DNA from: a phage
Strand: one strand, 5' to 3'
DNA length: 64,000 nt
Sequence record: PX104380.1
Part shown: positions 28,882 to 37,013 of the stretch, one piece after another
Layout: each line of letters starts with the position of its first letter
Position numbering within the stretch: the first letter of the stretch is position 1
Notes under the pieces: model-generated
Told to the model about the DNA's origin: nothing
Database searches by the model: none
Seen by the model: the letters and a program-made list of their open reading frames with translations, nothing else
Translations under genes and position numbers: made by a program

Positions 28882-30975
28882 TTATCCTTGAACGAACTTG
28901 TAAGGCATGTTTGTAATATCTATGCAAGACGCAATAATTCCAAGAGATGATTCTACTTTCTGTTTAACATTTGATGAAACAAATGATGCAAAGTCAACTC
29001 TGTCTTCTACTTTAATATCACCTGTCATTGCAACCAATTCACCAGTTTCCATTAGACGGTCACCGTCATAAATTACCGATTCGGTGAGTTCTTCCGTAGT
29101 CATAACTTCAGCTTGAATGAGTTTTGTATTATTAGATGTTGTTCCGTCATTATTAGAAGCATCAGTTATTTTATTAACTTTGACCATCAATCCGCGCGGT
29201 AGAATAACTTCAGCTTCTGTTGCTATTCCGAGACTTCCTGGATATACAACATTAACTTTATGAGCTCCATCAATTGCCCATCCTATTTGAACTTTAACAT
29301 ATTCAGGATTTTCTTTATACGCTCTTATTTCGTTTGGATTAATAGTTATTCCTTCTTCATTTTTATCAACTGTTAATTCATTACGAGCTTCTGGTTCTAA
29401 AAGACCAATACCAGCATGTGTGATTCCAAAACGTCCAAAAATGATAGGAGTTAAAGAAGTAGATACAAAATTTCTGAAGTAGAACACTTTATTTTTAACT
29501 AACGCTTCATATATAGGAGCAGTCATACTTTGAGCACGATAAACTGTAATGTCTTCTGGTATACGGTCACCATTTTCAAAAGCTGAATCTAAGTTATTTA
29601 TAGCAGATTCAATTTCTTTTTCACTCATTACATCGTATCGTTCTGGATTGTAACGACCTAAAAGAAGATTATTGATGTCAGTATATCCTGAACCGCAATA
29701 TTCTCTAATGCCACGCTTTTGTGATGGAGTATATTTAGAACCATCGCGTGCAATAGTAATATCAATCATTGGACCAGCACCAATTCCAGAAAAACTGTAA
29801 ATCATTCGTTTGAGGAATTTAGTTTTTGCTGCGTTCCAGGAATTTTTAGTTATTTCTTCCCAGACTTCATCTGGCTGCCCTTTACGATTTTTATTATGTT
29901 TATCAAGCCATTTATCTTTGTATTCTTCAAAGAATTTATTAACAGCTGCTGCGTATTTCTCTAAACATTTTATTGAAGTAGTTGGTTCATTTTTGATTGC
30001 GTTAAAAATTACATCTTTAATTTTTTCTGAAACTTCATCAACCTCACTTTTTGAAAAGAATTTATAGTCATAGTGAAGTTCATCTGCGGTTCCTTCGGCA
30101 ATAATTTTTGCTGCCTTAGTTTTAGAAGCTAATGAATTAATTCCAAGCTTCATTTCTTCTGCTTCGGGAATTAAAGGAGCGGTAGCAGGTTTATTGAAAT
30201 TAGCTGCGGTAGATTCATACTTATGGAATAATTCACTTTCAAATCTAGAAGATTCCAACGACTGACTTTGCGCAATTGCTCTACGGGAAATTTTAACTTT
30301 AACGATTACAGCTTGGTCAGAACGTTTATCATTTTCTTGTGCAATAGATGCTGCAATTGCCTCATTTTTAGTTACTTGAGCTCCAGTATCTTTATTGATA
30401 TAAACATCACCGACCTTCGATTCAACCTTAGTAAAGAGCTCGGTACTAATTTCCGGAACCCCTGGAATGTCTTCTAGTGATACATTTTTGCGATGTATAA
30501 GAATATATGCATACTTTTTATCGTAATCCCAGAGTTCCTTAAGAAGGACGTATCTACCACCTGAACGACTGCGGATGAGTCTATCAGCAATAAGTTGAAT
30601 TTGTCGAGCTTGACCGGCGGTTTTAGACTTAAGAATACGAAGCATGCAGGCATCAATTTTATATTGACGCATTGTTTGCATTGCAACAGTAAAAACTGAA
30701 TTGATATAATTAATCGGGCTTGGCCCAAGACCTTTTAATTTAGCAATTGAACCTTTAGCAGTTAATGTAAAAGGAACAATATGCATCATTTTATCGCCCA
30801 TTTTTAAATCGCGATTAGTATCACCTCCAGATGTATAGGTACATAAACGAAAGCCTGGTTGTTCAATTGCATCATCAACATGAACTGAAAAAATTTGCGG
30901 TATTTTCTTCTTTGGATTTAAGTTTGTAATCGGAAGAGTAGTATCTTCGTCAAATAATTCTGTAATTAGTTCCAT
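28882..30975 (-). CDS. alt: Alt ADP-ribosyltransferase (697 aa)
   Basis: N-terminus MELITELFDE; ART triad YRAQ / FVSTSL / TEAEVILPRG; position downstream of gene 30 as T4 alt. Confidence 0.88.
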   Translation of the reverse strand: MELITELFDEDTTLPITNLNPKKKIPQIFSVHVDDAIEQPGFRLCTYTSGGDTNRDLKMGDKMMHIVPFTLTAKGSIAKLKGLGPSPINYINSVFTVAMQTMRQYKIDACMLRILKSKTAGQARQIQLIADRLIRSRSGGRYVLLKELWDYDKKYAYILIHRKNVSLEDIPGVPEISTELFTKVESKVGDVYINKDTGAQVTKNEAIAASIAQENDKRSDQAVIVKVKISRRAIAQSQSLESSRFESELFHKYESTAANFNKPATAPLIPEAEEMKLGINSLASKTKAAKIIAEGTADELHYDYKFFSKSEVDEVSEKIKDVIFNAIKNEPTTSIKCLEKYAAAVNKFFEEYKDKWLDKHNKNRKGQPDEVWEEITKNSWNAAKTKFLKRMIYSFSGIGAGPMIDITIARDGSKYTPSQKRGIREYCGSGYTDINNLLLGRYNPERYDVMSEKEIESAINNLDSAFENGDRIPEDITVYRAQSMTAPIYEALVKNKVFYFRNFVSTSLTPIIFGRFGITHAGIGLLEPEARNELTVDKNEEGITINPNEIRAYKENPEYVKVQIGWAIDGAHKVNVVYPGSLGIATEAEVILPRGLMVKVNKITDASNNDGTTSNNTKLIQAEVMTTEELTESVIYDGDRLMETGELVAMTGDIKVEDRVDFASFVSSNVKQKVESSLGIIASCIDITNMPYKFVQG

Positions 30976-30998: not shown

Positions 30999-31006
30999 TA
31001 TTTATA
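30999..31006 (-). promoter_or_regulatory. late promoter TATAAATA for alt
   Basis: minus-strand TATAAATA 23 nt upstream of alt ATG, following the terminator hairpin. Confidence 0.5.
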
Positions 31007-31011
31007 AAATT

Positions 31012-31029
31012 AAAGGCCCGAAGGCCTTT
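31012..31029 (-). terminator. hairpin AAAGGCC-UUCG-GGCCUUU overlapping stop of the 62-aa ORF
   Basis: 7-bp stem followed on minus strand by U-rich tract. Confidence 0.5.
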
Positions 31030-31216
31030 AGTAATCTAGTGGTAAGAGAGTACGGTATATTTCAAACTTCGGTCCTTTTTCATATGGATCAAATCTTTCC
31101 GTGAATTCATCATATGCTAGTTTATCTGGGAATTCAAGAATAACCTGCGATACCGCAGTGGAAACATCTCCACCTTCTTTTTGAGCCACGACAATTGTTT
31201 CTAAGTAAGCTTTCAT
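31028..31216 (-). CDS. hypothetical protein, 62 aa
   Basis: ATGA overlap with ligase stop. Confidence 0.5.
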   Translation of the reverse strand: MKAYLETIVVAQKEGGDVSTAVSQVILEFPDKLAYDEFTERFDPYEKGPKFEIYRTLLPLDY

Positions 31217-32676
31217 AAACCAGTTACCTCATGAAAATCGCCAAATACATCTTCGAACGTATTAGCTTTAGTTTTATCTTCACGTAAACGAATTGCAATT
31301 GGAAGAAATAGCTTAACGTAATCAGTACGTCCATCTAATTTTACCCAGCCGTTGCATTCGCACTCTAGAATTTTTCCAATATAATAATTTTGGTTTTCCA
31401 TAATGCGAGTACGGTCAAGTTCATGCGATTTTACGCCGGCTTTATCTTTTAAGCCTGAACCAGCATTTACTTTAATTTTTCCACACTCTGATTCAAGAAT
31501 GAAACCACCTGCTTTAGTAGGGTCTTTACGGTGAGGATAAATTCCTACAATTTTTAAATCAACATCAATTACTTCTTTAAATTTATAGAGATTTTTTGAA
31601 CGAGCATTTTCCCATAATCCATCGATATTTTTGAGAATAATACCTTCAAGACCTTGGTCAATATACTTTTTATAAATTACCTTAGCTTCATCTAGGTTAT
31701 TTACTACCTGGTTTTCAATTAAAATTACTTTGTCATATCCTGATGTCATTTGTTCTAGTTTAGAAAAACGTACATCATATTTTAAACGAAATGCTGGAAG
31801 ACTATATATTTCTACTAATGGAACATAATCCCAGACCTGAAACTTCATGCATTGAGCTTCTTTTTCTGAAATAGTTCCCTTTAAAGATTTATTAGCGATT
31901 CCATTAGAAGTAGTACGTGATTCAGCTACTTCGGCGAATTCTTTAGCTTTACTAATTTCAGGATAAGCATCAAAAAGAAAATCTAGGCCTTCTGGCTCCT
32001 TTTTAACTTGCTCATGGTATACCAATTCGCCATCAATTAACACACCTTCTGGATGAATCTGGCGAGCTTCTGCAGTCATTTTGATTAACTCTTCCTTAAG
32101 AAGATCTAATCCTAGATATTCATTACCAGCTCGTGATAAAAGACGAACATCATCTAATTCATCACCTCTAACTTCAGCAAAGCACCGAGCTCCATCAGCT
32201 TTTAACTGGGCAAAAGCTGGAAATTTGATATTCTTATTAATGCCTTTTTCATCATAAGAACTTGCAAGCATTTGAGGTTGTTCAGGAATTAAACCTGGCC
32301 AAACTTTGTTTGCAATAGATACTGATGCACCGCATTCAAGGTCTCGCATCATCACTCGACGCAAAACTTCAACATCATCTTTTTTACCGTCAGTAATATA
32401 TCCAGTTAATTCCTCAATTGCCGCATTTCCAGTCAATTTCCGAGTAGCTAACGTGAATTCAATGAAGTCAAGCATATCGGTAAGAGTCAACATTCCAAAA
32501 CTCTGGGTAGCAATACCAGGTTTAGGCCATTTCTTGATATAATACTGTAACCCACGAGAATAAGTCAGACGATATACTCGTTTAAGCAATTCATTATCTT
32601 TATTCTTTTCAAGAATTGCTTGCTTCTGCTTAGTTGAACCAATAGATGCTATTTCGTTCAGAATTTTAAGAATCAT
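31213..32676 (-). CDS. 30: ATP-dependent DNA ligase gp30
   Basis: 487 aa; active-site motif KADGAR; SD AAGGA. Confidence 0.96.
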   Translation of the reverse strand: MILKILNEIASIGSTKQKQAILEKNKDNELLKRVYRLTYSRGLQYYIKKWPKPGIATQSFGMLTLTDMLDFIEFTLATRKLTGNAAIEELTGYITDGKKDDVEVLRRVMMRDLECGASVSIANKVWPGLIPEQPQMLASSYDEKGINKNIKFPAFAQLKADGARCFAEVRGDELDDVRLLSRAGNEYLGLDLLKEELIKMTAEARQIHPEGVLIDGELVYHEQVKKEPEGLDFLFDAYPEISKAKEFAEVAESRTTSNGIANKSLKGTISEKEAQCMKFQVWDYVPLVEIYSLPAFRLKYDVRFSKLEQMTSGYDKVILIENQVVNNLDEAKVIYKKYIDQGLEGIILKNIDGLWENARSKNLYKFKEVIDVDLKIVGIYPHRKDPTKAGGFILESECGKIKVNAGSGLKDKAGVKSHELDRTRIMENQNYYIGKILECECNGWVKLDGRTDYVKLFLPIAIRLREDKTKANTFEDVFGDFHEVTGL

Positions 32677-32942
32677 TATTCATCCTTCAGAGTTTGGTTT
32701 ACAACTCTATTATAAATCAATTCATCATTAAGCTCAGGCAAAGACTTATGATATGTAGTTCTAACTTTATTTCCTTGCATCCAGTGCTTGACGTAAATGA
32801 AACCTTGCTCTACACATTTTTTAAAAATTCGTTCGTCTTTTTGAGCTCGGAATTCTGGATTGCATCTAAAAAATTGATTTACGTGACCGTAATCACGTGT
32901 AGTATTACCTTCATTTTCATAAATAGTATGAACAACAAACAT
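32676..32942 (-). CDS. 30.1: hypothetical protein (30.1 position)
   Basis: 88 aa; TAATG overlap with ligase start; SD AAGGAG. Confidence 0.6.
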   Translation of the reverse strand: MFVVHTIYENEGNTTRDYGHVNQFFRCNPEFRAQKDERIFKKCVEQGFIYVKHWMQGNKVRTTYHKSLPELNDELIYNRVVNQTLKDE

Positions 32943-33778
32943 TAGAATGCTCCTTGGAAAATATTATCACCACTAGTAGGTCTATTATACAAATACTCTA
33001 TGCCACCAGGTTTAATATAGTTCCATGTCTGAAACGGATGTGTCTGATATGGATGATATAGATTATAAGGATTAAATCCAGGAGTTCTCCAGGTAGTGTT
33101 CCAAGGAAAAGAATCGTTTTTAACCATCTTCTCGATTACATCTTTTATAGCTTTTTCACGATCAAAACTTTCTTTATTTTCCTTCGGTGAAAAAAGCTTA
33201 TTCTCTACATCATTCCATGTATAAACTCGCTGTGCAGTTTTTGGAATACTGTCACGCTCCCCTCGAGCCATCCAATAAACAGGAACATTTAATATTTCAC
33301 TCGCGTGATCGCAGTGGTGAGCGAGATCGTCAATATAACAAATTACGTTATATTTCTCTTTTGCTTTTTTGAACAACTCTTCTTTTGAAGAATCATGACC
33401 ACACATCAATACTTCTGAGAAGGCACCAGGAAAAAGAGCATTCAAATTAAATTGACGATTCAGCAGAGCGTCAATAGAATCACCCAGTGCTGTAACAGCT
33501 ACAAAATTATAATCTTCTTTTAATTTGTTAATTACACACAGAGCATCTTTATATGGAGACAAGTAACGAATAAAATCCGAACGATTGTATTTTTCAATTA
33601 ACTTGACGCCAAGTTCTTCGTCGCAATTAAAGAGTTTACCTGGAGAAATAAATTTCTCATCTTGGATCATTTTTAAAATATGTTCTAACGGAAGATTATA
33701 TTTCTGAGCAAAATAAGGAAGGCCTGATTGCCAGCTTAAACATACTCCATCAATATCAGTTAAAATAGTAGGCTTCAT
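32942..33778 (-). CDS. 30.2: HAD-like hydrolase (30.2 position)
   Basis: 278 aa; HAD motif I LTDIDGV near N-terminus and DD motif YIDDLAHH. Confidence 0.7.
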   Translation of the reverse strand: MKPTILTDIDGVCLSWQSGLPYFAQKYNLPLEHILKMIQDEKFISPGKLFNCDEELGVKLIEKYNRSDFIRYLSPYKDALCVINKLKEDYNFVAVTALGDSIDALLNRQFNLNALFPGAFSEVLMCGHDSSKEELFKKAKEKYNVICYIDDLAHHCDHASEILNVPVYWMARGERDSIPKTAQRVYTWNDVENKLFSPKENKESFDREKAIKDVIEKMVKNDSFPWNTTWRTPGFNPYNLYHPYQTHPFQTWNYIKPGGIEYLYNRPTSGDNIFQGAF

Positions 33779-34233
33779 AGAGAGTCTCTTAATAGGTTTA
33801 ACACATCAATAAATTCAGCTTCGGTTAGTATTGTATCATCTTTTGTTAGACCACTAGCCATGCTATGCTTCAAAATTTTTCCTTTAGAGGCTTGTAAGGC
33901 ATCACGAAACCCCTTGTTTTGAATCGCTGCTTCAAAATATGCATTTGTATACAACTCTTTCCATGCTGCAGAGTATCTTGAAAAGGGAATTCCAAGCCAG
34001 AAAAGCGTCCCACGGTCCGCAGCTCTTGCATAAGCTCTTCCACTTTGCTGGGCGGCCAATCCGGAGAGCCTAAATATACGACGTTGTTGTTCAACATTTT
34101 TCACCTTGCATCCTTGGAGGAATCCTTCAAGACCTCCGAATTGAATACCATCCATGACGAAAGGCCATTGGGCGAAATTACTTAATGCGCATGATGGCCA
34201 TCTAAAATTGCTTCTAATCTCTAACTCAGACAT
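33775..34233 (-). CDS. 30.3: NADAR (YbiA/DUF1768)-family protein (30.3 position)
   Basis: 152 aa from ATG 34233 (ORF track starts at in-frame TTG 34239); NADAR-like segment FRWPSCALSNFAQWPFVMDGIQFGGLEGFLQGCK. Confidence 0.7.
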   Translation of the reverse strand: MSELEIRSNFRWPSCALSNFAQWPFVMDGIQFGGLEGFLQGCKVKNVEQQRRIFRLSGLAAQQSGRAYARAADRGTLFWLGIPFSRYSAAWKELYTNAYFEAAIQNKGFRDALQASKGKILKHSMASGLTKDDTILTEAEFIDVLNLLRDSL

Positions 34234-34432
34234 TTTCAATACTTATAATTTCAACATCAGCCCAATGACCATAGCAAGGAAGACGAAATTCAACTGGCCA
34301 GTTAGGGTCCTTTTCTAATATAATAGACTTAACTTGTGGTTCTTCGTGTTCATCAGTATACGGATTTTTATCTGTTACTTTATATGTGACCTTAATGTAC
34401 TGAATTCCAAAAATCTTATTAATTATATTCAT
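34226..34432 (-). CDS. hypothetical protein, 68 aa
   Basis: ATG with SD AAAGGA; ATGA overlap with upstream gene. Confidence 0.5.
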   Translation of the reverse strand: MNIINKIFGIQYIKVTYKVTDKNPYTDEHEEPQVKSIILEKDPNWPVEFRLPCYGHWADVEIISIENV

Positions 34433-34626
34433 ACTAATTCCTTTAATCCGTAGATAGGAGATAATTCATCACCCATACGAAGGTCTTCATTTCCATCTAC
34501 CCAGGAAACAATATAAGCCTCTTTTACTTGAACATCTCCCAATTTAAATGCGGGTAAAACCTTAGAAATTAATCCAGGTATACCAACTCCCTTTAATTCA
34601 ACAGTTTGGCCTAAAAAGAATTTCAT
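34429..34626 (-). CDS. hypothetical protein, 65 aa
   Basis: ATG with SD GAGG; TAATG overlap. Confidence 0.5.
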   Translation of the reverse strand: MKFFLGQTVELKGVGIPGLISKVLPAFKLGDVQVKEAYIVSWVDGNEDLRMGDELSPIYGLKELV

Positions 34627-34913
34627 TAAAACCTCATCTGAAAACCATGCGATTTAACATTACCGCCATTAATATCAGAACTATTAATTTCACGTGCAAT
34701 TGAGGGATCAATGTCAATTTCGCCATTAAGTTTAACGATAGCTAAAGTATCGCGCCCATTTACAGTACGGAACTCTAAAGGGCAGACTACATTAACGTAG
34801 TTTTTAATCGATTCACTGGTAGGTTGCAAATGAGCAGGAAGGTCTTTAGGCGCCTTAGAGAAAACCACTTCACAGAAATTTTTGCGGGTATCAAAATAAG
34901 TAGTCATAAACAT
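34626..34913 (-). CDS. hypothetical protein, 95 aa
   Basis: ATG 34913 with SD GAGGA; ORF track start is an upstream TTG reading through a UUCG hairpin at 34930-34945. Confidence 0.5.
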   Translation of the reverse strand: MFMTTYFDTRKNFCEVVFSKAPKDLPAHLQPTSESIKNYVNVVCPLEFRTVNGRDTLAIVKLNGEIDIDPSIAREINSSDINGGNVKSHGFQMRF

Positions 34914-34953
34914 AATATTTTCCTCAGTAAGGGGCCGAAGCCCCTGTTTTATT

Positions 34954-35319
34954 TTAAATATCAAATTCGTTAAGAACTACATCAAAGATTGCTTCAAGAT
35001 GCTCAGGTTTAGCTCTATTACTCAGAATATGACGAATCCAAGTTTTAACAAGAAGCTTGCGATTAACGCCATTCCAGCAAGGATGAGCCCCTAAATCACG
35101 TTGACGAAAATCATCATCTAATGCGATTTTAAAAGAAGAACCTTCTTTCGTGATTGAAACTGTAATACCGTTTTCAAATCGCATATACACATAGTTAGGA
35201 GTCATATACTGTTCAATTTCGCATACTGATCCATTTTGATGTTTCCAAAGGCAAATAGTATCAATAGAACCTGCAATACCATTAGAAACATATTTACGTT
35301 CAAAGTTGATGTAGTTCAT
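34954..35319 (-). CDS. hypothetical protein, 121 aa
   Basis: ATG with SD GGAGA; early promoter upstream. Confidence 0.55.
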   Translation of the reverse strand: MNYINFERKYVSNGIAGSIDTICLWKHQNGSVCEIEQYMTPNYVYMRFENGITVSITKEGSSFKIALDDDFRQRDLGAHPCWNGVNRKLLVKTWIRHILSNRAKPEHLEAIFDVVLNEFDI

Positions 35320-35355
35320 TTTTGTTCTCCGAGATGTTTAATTGCGGTACAGGTA

Positions 35356-35385
35356 TATAATATCATATCCTGTACCAAAGTAAAC
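35356..35385 (-). promoter_or_regulatory. T4-type early promoter (GTTTAC-N18-TATTAT) with -10 inside the loop of an 8-bp inverted repeat
   Basis: -35 begins 2 nt after the upstream stop; inverted repeat GGTACAGG / CCTGTACC at 35346-35376. Confidence 0.5.
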
Positions 35386-35387
35386 AA

Positions 35388-35720
35388 TTATTTTACTACT
35401 TTCCAGTGCTGCATGTCAAGTTTACCGACTTTTTTCATCTTCTCAATTAAGCGTTCGGCACGTTGGCGAGCTGTAACATAATACCATTCACCTAATTCAT
35501 TTTGTTCAATTTTTCCAACGATTACTGTATTCAATTCATAAATCCAACCAGTAAAGAAATTATGAACTTGAATTGTAAAGGTGAAATCTGTTCCCATACC
35601 TTCTGTTGTTTCTACTTCAATAATATCACCTTCAACTGCCATTAAGAACCACATAGTTTCATCATATTTACCATTGAAGCATTTAGTTTTAACTGCAGCG
35701 TTCAGATTAATCGTTTTCAT
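35388..35720 (-). CDS. hypothetical protein, 110 aa
   Basis: ATG with SD AAAGGAG. Confidence 0.55.
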   Translation of the reverse strand: MKTINLNAAVKTKCFNGKYDETMWFLMAVEGDIIEVETTEGMGTDFTFTIQVHNFFTGWIYELNTVIVGKIEQNELGEWYYVTARQRAERLIEKMKKVGKLDMQHWKVVK

Positions 35721-35747
35721 TTTATTCTCCTTTGTTTGTGTAAGATA

Positions 35748-35777
35748 ATACTATCACAAAGGAACCATACTGTAAAC
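35748..35777 (-). promoter_or_regulatory. T4-type early promoter (GTTTAC-N17/18-TAGTAT)
   Basis: GTTTAC and TGTGATAGTAT upstream of the 110-aa ORF. Confidence 0.45.
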
Positions 35778-35801
35778 AACTTTGTGCAATCTTTGGAAAA
35801 T

Positions 35802-35825
35802 AAAAAAGGACTCCCGAAGGAGTCC
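35802..35825 (-). terminator. hairpin GGACUCC-UUCG-GGAGUCC plus UUUUUU, 3' of 30.9
   Basis: 7-bp stem followed by six U on the minus strand. Confidence 0.6.
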
Positions 35826-35830
35826 TTAAC

Positions 35831-36007
35831 TTATGCTTTCTGCTTACCAAAACGAGAAGCATCATCTCGAAGAACCGCACGTGCTCGGCGCATGATCTTC
35901 TCAACAGTTTGATTGATACGAGAGTTCGACCCACGCTTGTAGCCAGCGCGTTTAGAATCACCAACTTTCTTTTCAACTGCTTTCTTTGCTTTAGCTTGTT
36001 TTGCCAT
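35831..36007 (-). CDS. 30.9: hypothetical basic protein (30.9 position)
   Basis: 58 aa from ATG 36007 (MAKQAKAKK...); an in-frame ATG at 36049 would give 72 aa. Confidence 0.55.
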   Translation of the reverse strand: MAKQAKAKKAVEKKVGDSKRAGYKRGSNSRINQTVEKIMRRARAVLRDDASRFGKQKA

Positions 36008-36251
36008 TATAAATTCTCTTTTAAATGAAAATGCAGGACTTATTGGCATTGCCTGCGAAAGCCCTCAAAGGGGTACTTAGGTTTTGAATATTTACCGACA
36101 GGATAACCATAAACCCGTCATCATTCACATTCAAGAGGTACACCATAAAACTGCCGGGGTCTTAAAACTATAATGATTCGCAAATCATTAATCAGACAGT
36201 TCGACGGCTCCTCGATTTTAGCTCACACTAAGGCAGTGAATCTCCAATAAA

Positions 36252-36500
36252 TTACTTCAGTGTTACCACAAAGTGACGAACTGCTTTTCGTGCAGCAGAA
36301 GCCAGAGGCTTAGCATATTTAAGTTCATCTTTTTCCTGAAGCTCAGCAGCTAATGCAGTTTGAGCAGGATTCAGATGTTTGAAATAACGCAGGATTTCAA
36401 GAGCTTCGGCTTCAACATCAATAGATGCGCCATAGTTTTCGTGACCATTATTCCATGCGTTTCGTTGCAGTTCAAGAGCGTGTTGTAATTGTTTAATCAT
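36252..36500 (-). CDS. rIII: lysis inhibition accessory protein rIII
   Basis: 82 aa; T4 size and position upstream of 30.9. Confidence 0.85.
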   Translation of the reverse strand: MIKQLQHALELQRNAWNNGHENYGASIDVEAEALEILRYFKHLNPAQTALAAELQEKDELKYAKPLASAARKAVRHFVVTLK

Positions 36501-36647
36501 TTAAAAATTCTCGTTAGAGATTAAAACTCGGTAGTCACGTTCTTCTGAATTTCATCTTCTTTCGACAGATCTCTCAGTTGTAGACTACCACATAGAATTG
36601 TTCGGTTAACTTATTATTCCGACACCCAATTCATATTATTATTTATA

Positions 36648-36983
36648 TCACTTATAAAGACACGGAATAGCTTTATAGTGACAAGTAACGAATTTTTGTT
36701 TAATTTCTTTTGGCTGCTTAAGACCCAGAGCTACAAAAGGATGCGGAACATTTCGAATTTGACCAACTGGAAGAGAAGTCAAATCACCGACTTCGCAGAA
36801 ACCTTCAGGAACATCAGGACCAACAGAGTGAACTACACACAGTTCAGGAACTTCACCTTGAACACGTTTACCGATAATAAGTCCTGATTCTGTAACTTCT
36901 TCATCACCGGCTTGTGCAGGTTCAGAAACTAAAATAACATATTCACCGACAGCACGAATTGGTAGCTGTTGTACTTCAGACAT
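36648..36983 (-). CDS. 31: head assembly co-chaperonin gp31 (GroES-like)
   Basis: 111 aa; SD AAAGGA; T4 size. Confidence 0.93.
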
Positions 36984-37013
36984 CGTTTTTCCTTTTTGTT
37001 AACAGATGAATTA

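Follow-up and report, generated by a model that had tools for sequence, protein, structure and literature searches.

A T4-type phage locus with an AdfN orthologue of the NADAR family and a predicted HAD phosphatase that keeps with DNA ligase

Genes 30.3 and 30.2 in a T4-type genome

The sequence analysed here is a 64,000-nucleotide (nt) stretch of phage DNA from record PX104380.1 (the window), which is part of a T4-type (Tequatrovirus) genome; the 1.9 kb around its genes 30.3 and 30.2 share 96–98% identity with many Tequatrovirus records of Escherichia and Shigella phages. Positions 32942–34233 on the minus strand hold exactly two intact open reading frames (ORFs): the orthologue of gene 30.3, now called adfN (33775–34233; 152 amino acids (aa); ATG at 34233), and the orthologue of gene 30.2 (32942–33778; 278 aa), a predicted HAD-superfamily phosphatase gene. 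The two overlap by 4 nt, with the junction sequence ATGA (33775–33778, minus strand) containing both the stop of 30.3 and the start of 30.2. A program-made ORF list runs the 30.3 ORF on to a TTG at 34239. On the minus strand the genes stand in the same order as in T4: cd, 31.2, 31.1, 31, rIII, 30.9 to 30.4, 30.3, 30.2, 30.1, 30 (ligase), alt.1 and alt.

Both ORFs are real genes and not chance ORFs, because their products match family models, are identical in large part to their T4 counterparts in a shared gene order, and have tblastn matches in many phage records (1511 for the 30.3 protein and 1453 for the 30.2 protein). The successive ORFs 30.4, 30.3, 30.2, 30.1 and 30 (32676–34432, minus strand) overlap by 8, 4, 1 and 1 nt, the junctions being ATGTCTGA, ATGA, TAATG and TAATG, respectively. 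Because of these overlaps, the 30.4-to-30 block gives the appearance of a single unit with translational coupling.

The 152-aa protein is an orthologue of T4 AdfN

The 30.3 product matches the Pfam family PF08010 (Phage_30_3) over model positions 1–138 of 138 (E=2.8e-67; 225.2 bits against a cutoff of 36) and phrog_652 (E=1.2e-49). It is identical to T4 gp30.3 at 144 of 152 residues (94.7%), and the eight differences (positions 55, 64, 67, 72, 82, 89, 120 and 125) all lie outside the invariant columns of the family; the last 56 nt of the gene, which encode the C-terminus, are identical to T4 DNA. A previous reading of the letters alone (the sequence-only reading) had pointed to a NADAR segment in this protein, and this segment, FRWPSCALSNFAQWPFVMDGIQFGGLEGF, was located at residues 10–38 (34120–34206, minus strand). 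In a single-sequence search of the PDB, Escherichia coli YbiA was a sub-significant match (E=0.48); significance came only with a profile of 47 gp30.3 homologues, which YbiA matched at E=0.0058. Pfam NADAR (PF08719) is matched by 22 of these 47 homologues (best E=2.8e-7), whereas the window protein itself matches only PF08010. The AlphaFold2 (AF2) model of the 152-aa protein has a predicted local distance difference test (pLDDT) score of 93. The NADAR call thus holds, and so does the HAD call that the same reading made for the 30.2 product. Scans of both proteins with PADLOC and NCBIfam gave nothing meaningful.

The NADAR catalytic residues, the loss of which would have spoken against the sequence-only reading, are present and were checked by translation: E36 (34126–34128) and K43 (34105–34107), together spanning 34105–34128 on the minus strand. 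The 47 homologues, which extend down to ~35% identity, all share E36, G37, Q40 and H123, and for K43 the conservation is at least 90%. H123 (codon 33865–33867, minus strand) stands at the end of the last beta-strand, which comprises residues 120–122 in the model, and is invariant in both gp30.3-family alignments. The residue on the last strand is His in phage NADARs, Glu in YbiA and Asp in DarT-linked NADARs, and we infer that H123 is the histidine that was described there without a residue number (PMC11125620). The C-terminal helix (residues 138–152, EAEFIDVLNLLRDSL; 33778–33822, minus strand) is intact, and the model places a helix at residues 138–151.

An overlapping ORF, 30.3′ (33870–34097, minus strand; 75 aa), lies in the +1 frame inside 30.3; the T4 annotation lists it as a product of internal translation, and the window phage keeps it. 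It is open at 53–75 aa in T4- and RB69-type phages, drifts much faster than 30.3 and is absent from distant gp30.3 genes. ORF 30.3′ is probably under no purifying selection of its own, and it was not treated as a conserved gene.

Function of AdfN

The trait by which T-even phages resist DarTG1 was mapped to gene 30.3, which was thereupon renamed adfN (Johannesman et al., Nat Commun 2025, PMC11825919). Deletion of adfN from T4 or T2 abolished plaquing on DarTG1 hosts, and RB69, the own allele of which is frameshifted and lacks the last helix and which is sensitive to DarTG1, was rescued by T4 adfN in trans (PMC11825919). Purified T4 AdfN stripped ADP-ribose in vitro from DNA modified by DarT1, the target of which is guanosine; the E36A and K43A variants were impaired, binding of AdfN to DarT1 was not found in a two-hybrid assay, and the thymidine-specific DarTG2 was unaffected by AdfN (PMC11825919). 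An in vitro guanine-ADP-ribose hydrolase activity of T4 gp30.3 had been reported earlier (Suskiewicz lab, Toxins 2024, PMC11125620). The proposal of the sequence-only reading that a phage NADAR might remove ADP-ribose from guanine in DNA as a defence against DarT-type toxins is therefore one that these two studies have demonstrated for the T4 orthologue.

For the window protein the following mechanism is proposed. DarT1 of a host DarTG1 system would add ADP-ribose to guanine bases of the phage DNA; AdfN, as a stand-alone NADAR-fold glycohydrolase, would hydrolyse the N-glycosidic bond and release the ADP-ribose, and a replicable template would thereby be restored. AdfN would act enzymatically, without binding the toxin. 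We infer this mechanism from the T4 protein because the identity between the two is 94.7% and the catalytic residues, the invariant residues and the C-terminal helix are all intact; the two proteins also share their length and genomic position. The window allele is unlike T4 AdfN in its eight substitutions outside conserved columns, and its activity is a predicted one.

Several observations weigh against a simple transfer of this kind. T4 AdfN did not neutralise DarT1 in uninfected E. coli, in which it cannot replace DarG1 either, and it rescued T5 and Bas25 poorly (PMC11825919). It was fully active only in T-even infection, and the authors suggested that an additional T-even protein is needed (PMC11825919). 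The function ascribed to the proteins of the window phage is one transferred from T4.

Comparison with other NADAR proteins sets AdfN apart from the antitoxins. DarG1-type NADAR antitoxins (Geobacter lovleyi, PDB 8bat) and the Phytophthora NADAR (PDB 8bau) are 16–20% identical to the window protein, and the DarG1-type proteins carry Asp on the last strand where AdfN has His (PMC11125620). In contrast to DarT1-NADAR operons, the window gene is an orphan without a cognate toxin. YbiA (PDB 2b3w), the founding member of the NADAR/DUF1768 family, has Glu on its last strand, is encoded by the host within an operon under LexA control and, unlike AdfN, gives no protection against DarT1 in vivo (PMC11125620). 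In another reading, the main substrates of the phage NADAR would be soluble derivatives of ADP-ribose or signalling molecules, or else intermediates of the riboflavin pathway as for YbiA, and not DNA adducts. This is very improbable in view of the direct genetics and biochemistry of the T4 orthologue, which show DNA de-ADP-ribosylation and DarTG1 counter-defence (PMC11825919), although the enzyme may have a soluble substrate in addition.

AdfN, as published for T4 in 2024–2025, is a textbook-style case in which a phage has taken over an antitoxin-like enzyme and uses it to remove an immune mark at the level of DNA. The anti-DarT function of 30.3 is already in the literature for the T4 orthologue, and the window adds another allele.

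The 278-aa protein belongs to a divergent HAD family probably related to NT5C

The 30.2 product is ~97% identical to T4 gp30.2 and matches phrog_420, a family of unknown function, at E=7.3e-93, with a marginal match to phrog_415 (polynucleotide kinase). It matched no Pfam model at E≤1, including the HAD models PF00702 and PF13419 and the NT5C model PF06941. The two motifs on which the HAD call of the sequence-only reading was based were both recovered by translation. Motif I, LTDIDGV (residues 6–12; 33743–33763, minus strand), contains the putative nucleophile D8 and general acid/base D10; it has the form DxDGV, and the second Asp at +2, which is a mark of phosphatases, is present. Motifs II–IV (33320–33499, minus strand) comprise T96 (33485–33499), K132 (33383–33385) and the DD pair D150–D151 within YIDDLA (33320–33337).

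Thirteen residues (D8, D10, G11, W16, S18, Y64, S67, D78, N84, R108, N111, K132 and R172) are invariant among 49 gp30.2 homologues, in which conservation is at least 90% for T96, D150 and D151. An exhaustive profile search gave 1300 cluster representatives, of which 104 were sampled; among these relatives, down to ~22% identity, D8, D10, R108 and K132 are still invariant, and the conservation of D151 is again at least 90%. The AF2 model has pLDDT >90 over residues 1–195 and predicts a Rossmannoid HAD core with a helical C1 cap inserted after motif I, followed by a helix at 202–220 and a disordered tail at 227–278. The HAD assignment rests on this fold and on the motifs, the family being too divergent for the Pfam HAD models: PF00702 and HAD_2 were matched at sub-threshold level by 21 and 14 of the 104 relatives, respectively (13 of 49 in the smaller set).

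The clearest affinity is with the NT5C family of nucleotidases. Pfam NT5C (PF06941) was matched by 40 of the 104 relatives at E≤0.01 (best E=4e-10), one of which (P0350) reached 32.1 bits against a cutoff of 24.8. A broadened gp30.2 profile matched PDB 3bwv (from S. epidermidis) over its full length (E=6.9e-7), and also the mitochondrial and cytosolic 5′(3′)-deoxyribonucleotidases, mdN and cdN, and SDT1-type pyrimidine nucleotidases; in the single-sequence PDB search cdN was a sub-significant match (E=1.4). Most viral structural neighbours of gp30.2 have either no name or the annotation 5′ nucleotidase, and the polynucleotide-kinase phosphatase model PF25109 was matched in one of the 104 relatives. 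NT5C proteins (human and mouse mdN and cdN, and 3bwv) are the closest relatives of gp30.2, which differs from them in falling below the Pfam NT5C threshold, in an extra helix and in its disordered tail of ~50 residues. On these profile comparisons, gp30.2 is most aptly placed as a divergent sister branch of the NT5C 5′(3′)-deoxyribonucleotidase family. It is presumably a HAD aspartyl-phosphate phosphomonoesterase, with a dependence on Mg presumed from the superfamily, and would take the phosphate off a (deoxy)nucleoside monophosphate or another small phosphomonoester of a similar kind; the family relationship makes (deoxy)nucleoside monophosphates the most likely substrate class.

A search of the literature found no paper characterising gp30.2. 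T5 Dmp, a deoxynucleoside-5′-monophosphatase, was considered as a characterised homologue and ruled out (hhalign probability 3.7%; Dmp has no Pfam match). The two proteins may share a reaction class, from deoxynucleoside monophosphate (dNMP) to deoxynucleoside, with no detectable sequence relationship. Host nucleotides are discarded by T5 and recycled by T4. As it stands, gp30.2 is an uncharacterised, unremarkable conserved phosphatase; few early genes that lack an assigned function are as widely conserved among T4-like phages, and its intact catalytic motifs and a tail with short conserved motifs make it a sensible subject for modest biochemical work.

In some metagenomic relatives, the gp30.2-like part is fused to long additional regions: P0280 (591 aa), P0332 (660 aa), P0231 (430 aa) and P0270 (365 aa). 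No Pfam domain was found when fusion partners were sought in these regions, which comprise ~385–500 aa at the N-terminus or ~150–200 aa at the C-terminus.

Gene 30.2, not the NADAR gene, is linked to DNA ligase

The ATP-dependent DNA ligase gene 30 (31213–32676, minus strand; Pfam PF01068, E=1.3e-32) is the conserved downstream neighbour of 30.2. The sequence-only reading had placed the NADAR gene next to the ligase gene and had taken this as a clue to its function. The ligase gene is indeed near, but it does not adjoin the NADAR gene, since 30.2 and 30.1 (88 aa) stand in between. The conservation of this arrangement was assessed in 80 viral loci with a gp30.3-family NADAR and 79 loci with a gp30.2 homologue, each taken with 6-kb flanks and scored with the 30.2 and 30.3 profiles and with the ligase and gp30.1 sequences of the window.

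Within 6 kb of the 80 NADAR loci, 30.2 was found in 21 and ligase in 19. Around the 79 loci of 30.2, ligase was found in 74 (66 of the 67 with full flanks) and NADAR in 36; the ligase gene was on the same strand and usually lay directly downstream or was parted from 30.2 only by the small 30.1. A distance of ~55–70 kb parts the NADAR gene from the 30.2-ligase pair in several complete genomes of T4-like phages, among them Erwinia phage Cronus and Klebsiella-phage-type contigs. What follows the NADAR gene in Rhizobium phage AF3 is a helicase gene and not a HAD or ligase gene. A conserved same-strand neighbour was sought in the 59 NADAR loci without 30.2, and none was found. Because its linkage to ligase and 30.2 is rare, the genes can be far apart and no neighbour is constant, the NADAR gene resembles a mobile accessory gene in its behaviour, and its place beside 30.2 and ligase is limited to the T4 and RB69 lineages. 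Proximity to ligase is not conserved and so says nothing about the NADAR gene, and this part of the argument of the sequence-only reading fails. The gene that is linked to ligase across T4-like phages is 30.2, although strong ancestral synteny could explain this linkage without any functional coupling. This negative result on the NADAR gene, together with the constancy with which 30.2 keeps with ligase, is the more useful outcome of the comparison.

The same counts bear on the possibility that gp30.2 and AdfN form a functional two-enzyme module, in which gp30.2 would be the T-even helper of AdfN and would, for example, process the freed ADP-ribose or a phosphorylated intermediate, or else act on modified nucleotides. 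The ATGA overlap suggests translational coupling of the two genes, which also occur in very similar sets of Straboviridae genomes, as the near-equal numbers of tblastn records indicate. The extra T-even protein that was proposed to account for the full activity of T4 AdfN only in T-even infection (PMC11825919) would find a candidate in gp30.2: RB69, which T4 AdfN rescues, has a 30.2 gene, and the dNMPase of T5, Dmp, is unrelated to gp30.2. However, 30.2 accompanies barely a quarter of the NADAR loci, lies tens of kilobases away in several complete genomes, and is not required in vitro, where AdfN alone removes ADP-ribose from DNA (PMC11825919). Moreover, the chain of overlaps spans the whole 30.4-to-30 block and is thus not special to 30.3 and 30.2, and many other T-even-specific genes fit the phenotype equally well. 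Such a module is very unlikely. It is instead highly probable that 30.3 is an adfN orthologue, that 30.2 encodes a HAD phosphatase of the NT5C lineage, and that the pair is not an obligate module.

The disordered tail of gp30.2 carries a motif that resembles clamp-binding peptides

The tail of gp30.2 (residues 227–278; 32945–33100, minus strand) is hypervariable in length and sequence. It could be sorted into classes by short motifs: T4-, RB69- and Klebsiella-phage-type members share G-I/T-E-Y-L/W-x-N-x-Q/P-P-T, other members end in [DS]LRA[YS][YF], PDYVLLN..ANDS or PEWAKFPRLT..., and further members have no tail. They have the look of docking peptides, each specific to a lineage, on an enzyme core that is conserved. 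In the window the conserved motif is GGIEYLYNRPT (32975–33007, minus strand), and its likeness to LDFL[FYL] is a lead only.

The tail peptide that is a candidate binder of the sliding clamp gp45 is KPGGIEYLYNRPTSGDNIFQGAF. For comparison, the gp45-binding peptides of T4 are ...SLDFLFG in gp43 and ...SLDFLYEAND in gp55 (T4 record), and ...TLDFLL in gp33 (this window); the GLDFLF of ligase is a gp45-binding loop, for which a crystal structure was reported together with a dissociation constant of ~11 uM (Shi et al. 2018, PMC6212786). The loop is kept in the window ligase (residues 222–247; 31936–32013, minus strand). The GIEYLY of gp30.2 resembles these motifs in pattern, with three consecutive hydrophobic or aromatic residues in a disordered segment, but it departs from them at four positions (I/E/Y/Y for L/D/F/F) and lies 14 residues from the C-terminus. 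The pattern [STG][LI][DE][FY]L[FYL], which was widened after the gp30.2 motif had been seen, has three matches in the 135 ORFs of at least 50 aa in the window, against 0.076 expected from shuffles: the gp33 C-terminus TLDFLL, gp30.2 GIEYLY and the internal GLDFLF of ligase. Across 74 T4-like ligases the loop always has a short hydrophobic clamp-type peptide, although a variable one (LDFLF, LGFLF, LFSMF, LDDIFG, LSALM, FSLAGFM and others), and in the 79 loci the gp30.2 tail motif was not found to co-vary with this loop. Some T4 relatives with 93% identity have GDAGYFNRLT in place of the GIEYLY motif. A putative clamp-tethered role of gp30.2 is accordingly to be regarded as quite unlikely.

Linkage to ligase and the tail motif together raise the question whether gp30.2 is a phosphatase of DNA ends or replication forks that works with ligase and is tethered to gp45 by its tail, for example by clearing 3′-phosphates at nicks for sealing. 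The near-constant company of ligase in very divergent T4-like phages is consistent with this, as are the predicted disorder of the tail, the fit of GIEYLY to a pattern that otherwise matches only the known gp45 binders (ligase loop and gp33) among the window ORFs, and the weak matches to polynucleotide-kinase phosphatases (phrog_415, and PF25109 in a single relative). On the other side, the pattern was relaxed with the gp30.2 motif in sight, the motif neither co-varies with that of ligase nor persists in some close T4 relatives, and many family members are tailless or have other terminal motifs. The large C1 cap and the affinity to NT5C point to small-molecule substrates, adjacency may be ancestral in genomes as strongly syntenic as those of T4-like phages, and T4 already has the 3′-phosphatase PseT. 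A DNA-end phosphatase is for these reasons unlikely.

A still more speculative form of the idea would make gp30.2 a DNA-recruited phosphatase and not a free-living nucleotidase, its tail (GIEYLY...NIFQGAF) docking on gp45 beside ligase, and perhaps also the missing T-even factor of AdfN. It has little chance of being right; if it were, gp30.2 would give T4-like phages a clamp-organised heal-and-seal or nucleotide-sanitising step.

Other features of the region

A scan for sigma-70 promoters over positions 31000–37000 gave 23 sites against 20.7 expected from shuffles and hence no enrichment. Terminator-like sites over the same positions numbered nine against 3.8 expected, ~2.4-fold over shuffles. 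Two strong terminator-like hairpins followed by T-runs lie on the minus strand: one at 35806–35827 (AAGGACTCCTTCGGGAGTCCTT), upstream of the 30.8–30.3 block, and the other at 31011–31030 (TAAAGGCCTTCGGGCCTTTA), between alt.1 and alt.

The gene of the ADP-ribosyltransferase Alt (697 aa; 28882–30975, minus strand; Pfam ADPrib_exo_Tox, E=4e-38) lies ~2.8 kb downstream of adfN, and the T4 counterpart of Alt is annotated as modifying the host RNA polymerase. With alt and adfN on one strand of one block, the phage carries both an ADP-ribose writer and an eraser for its own DNA.

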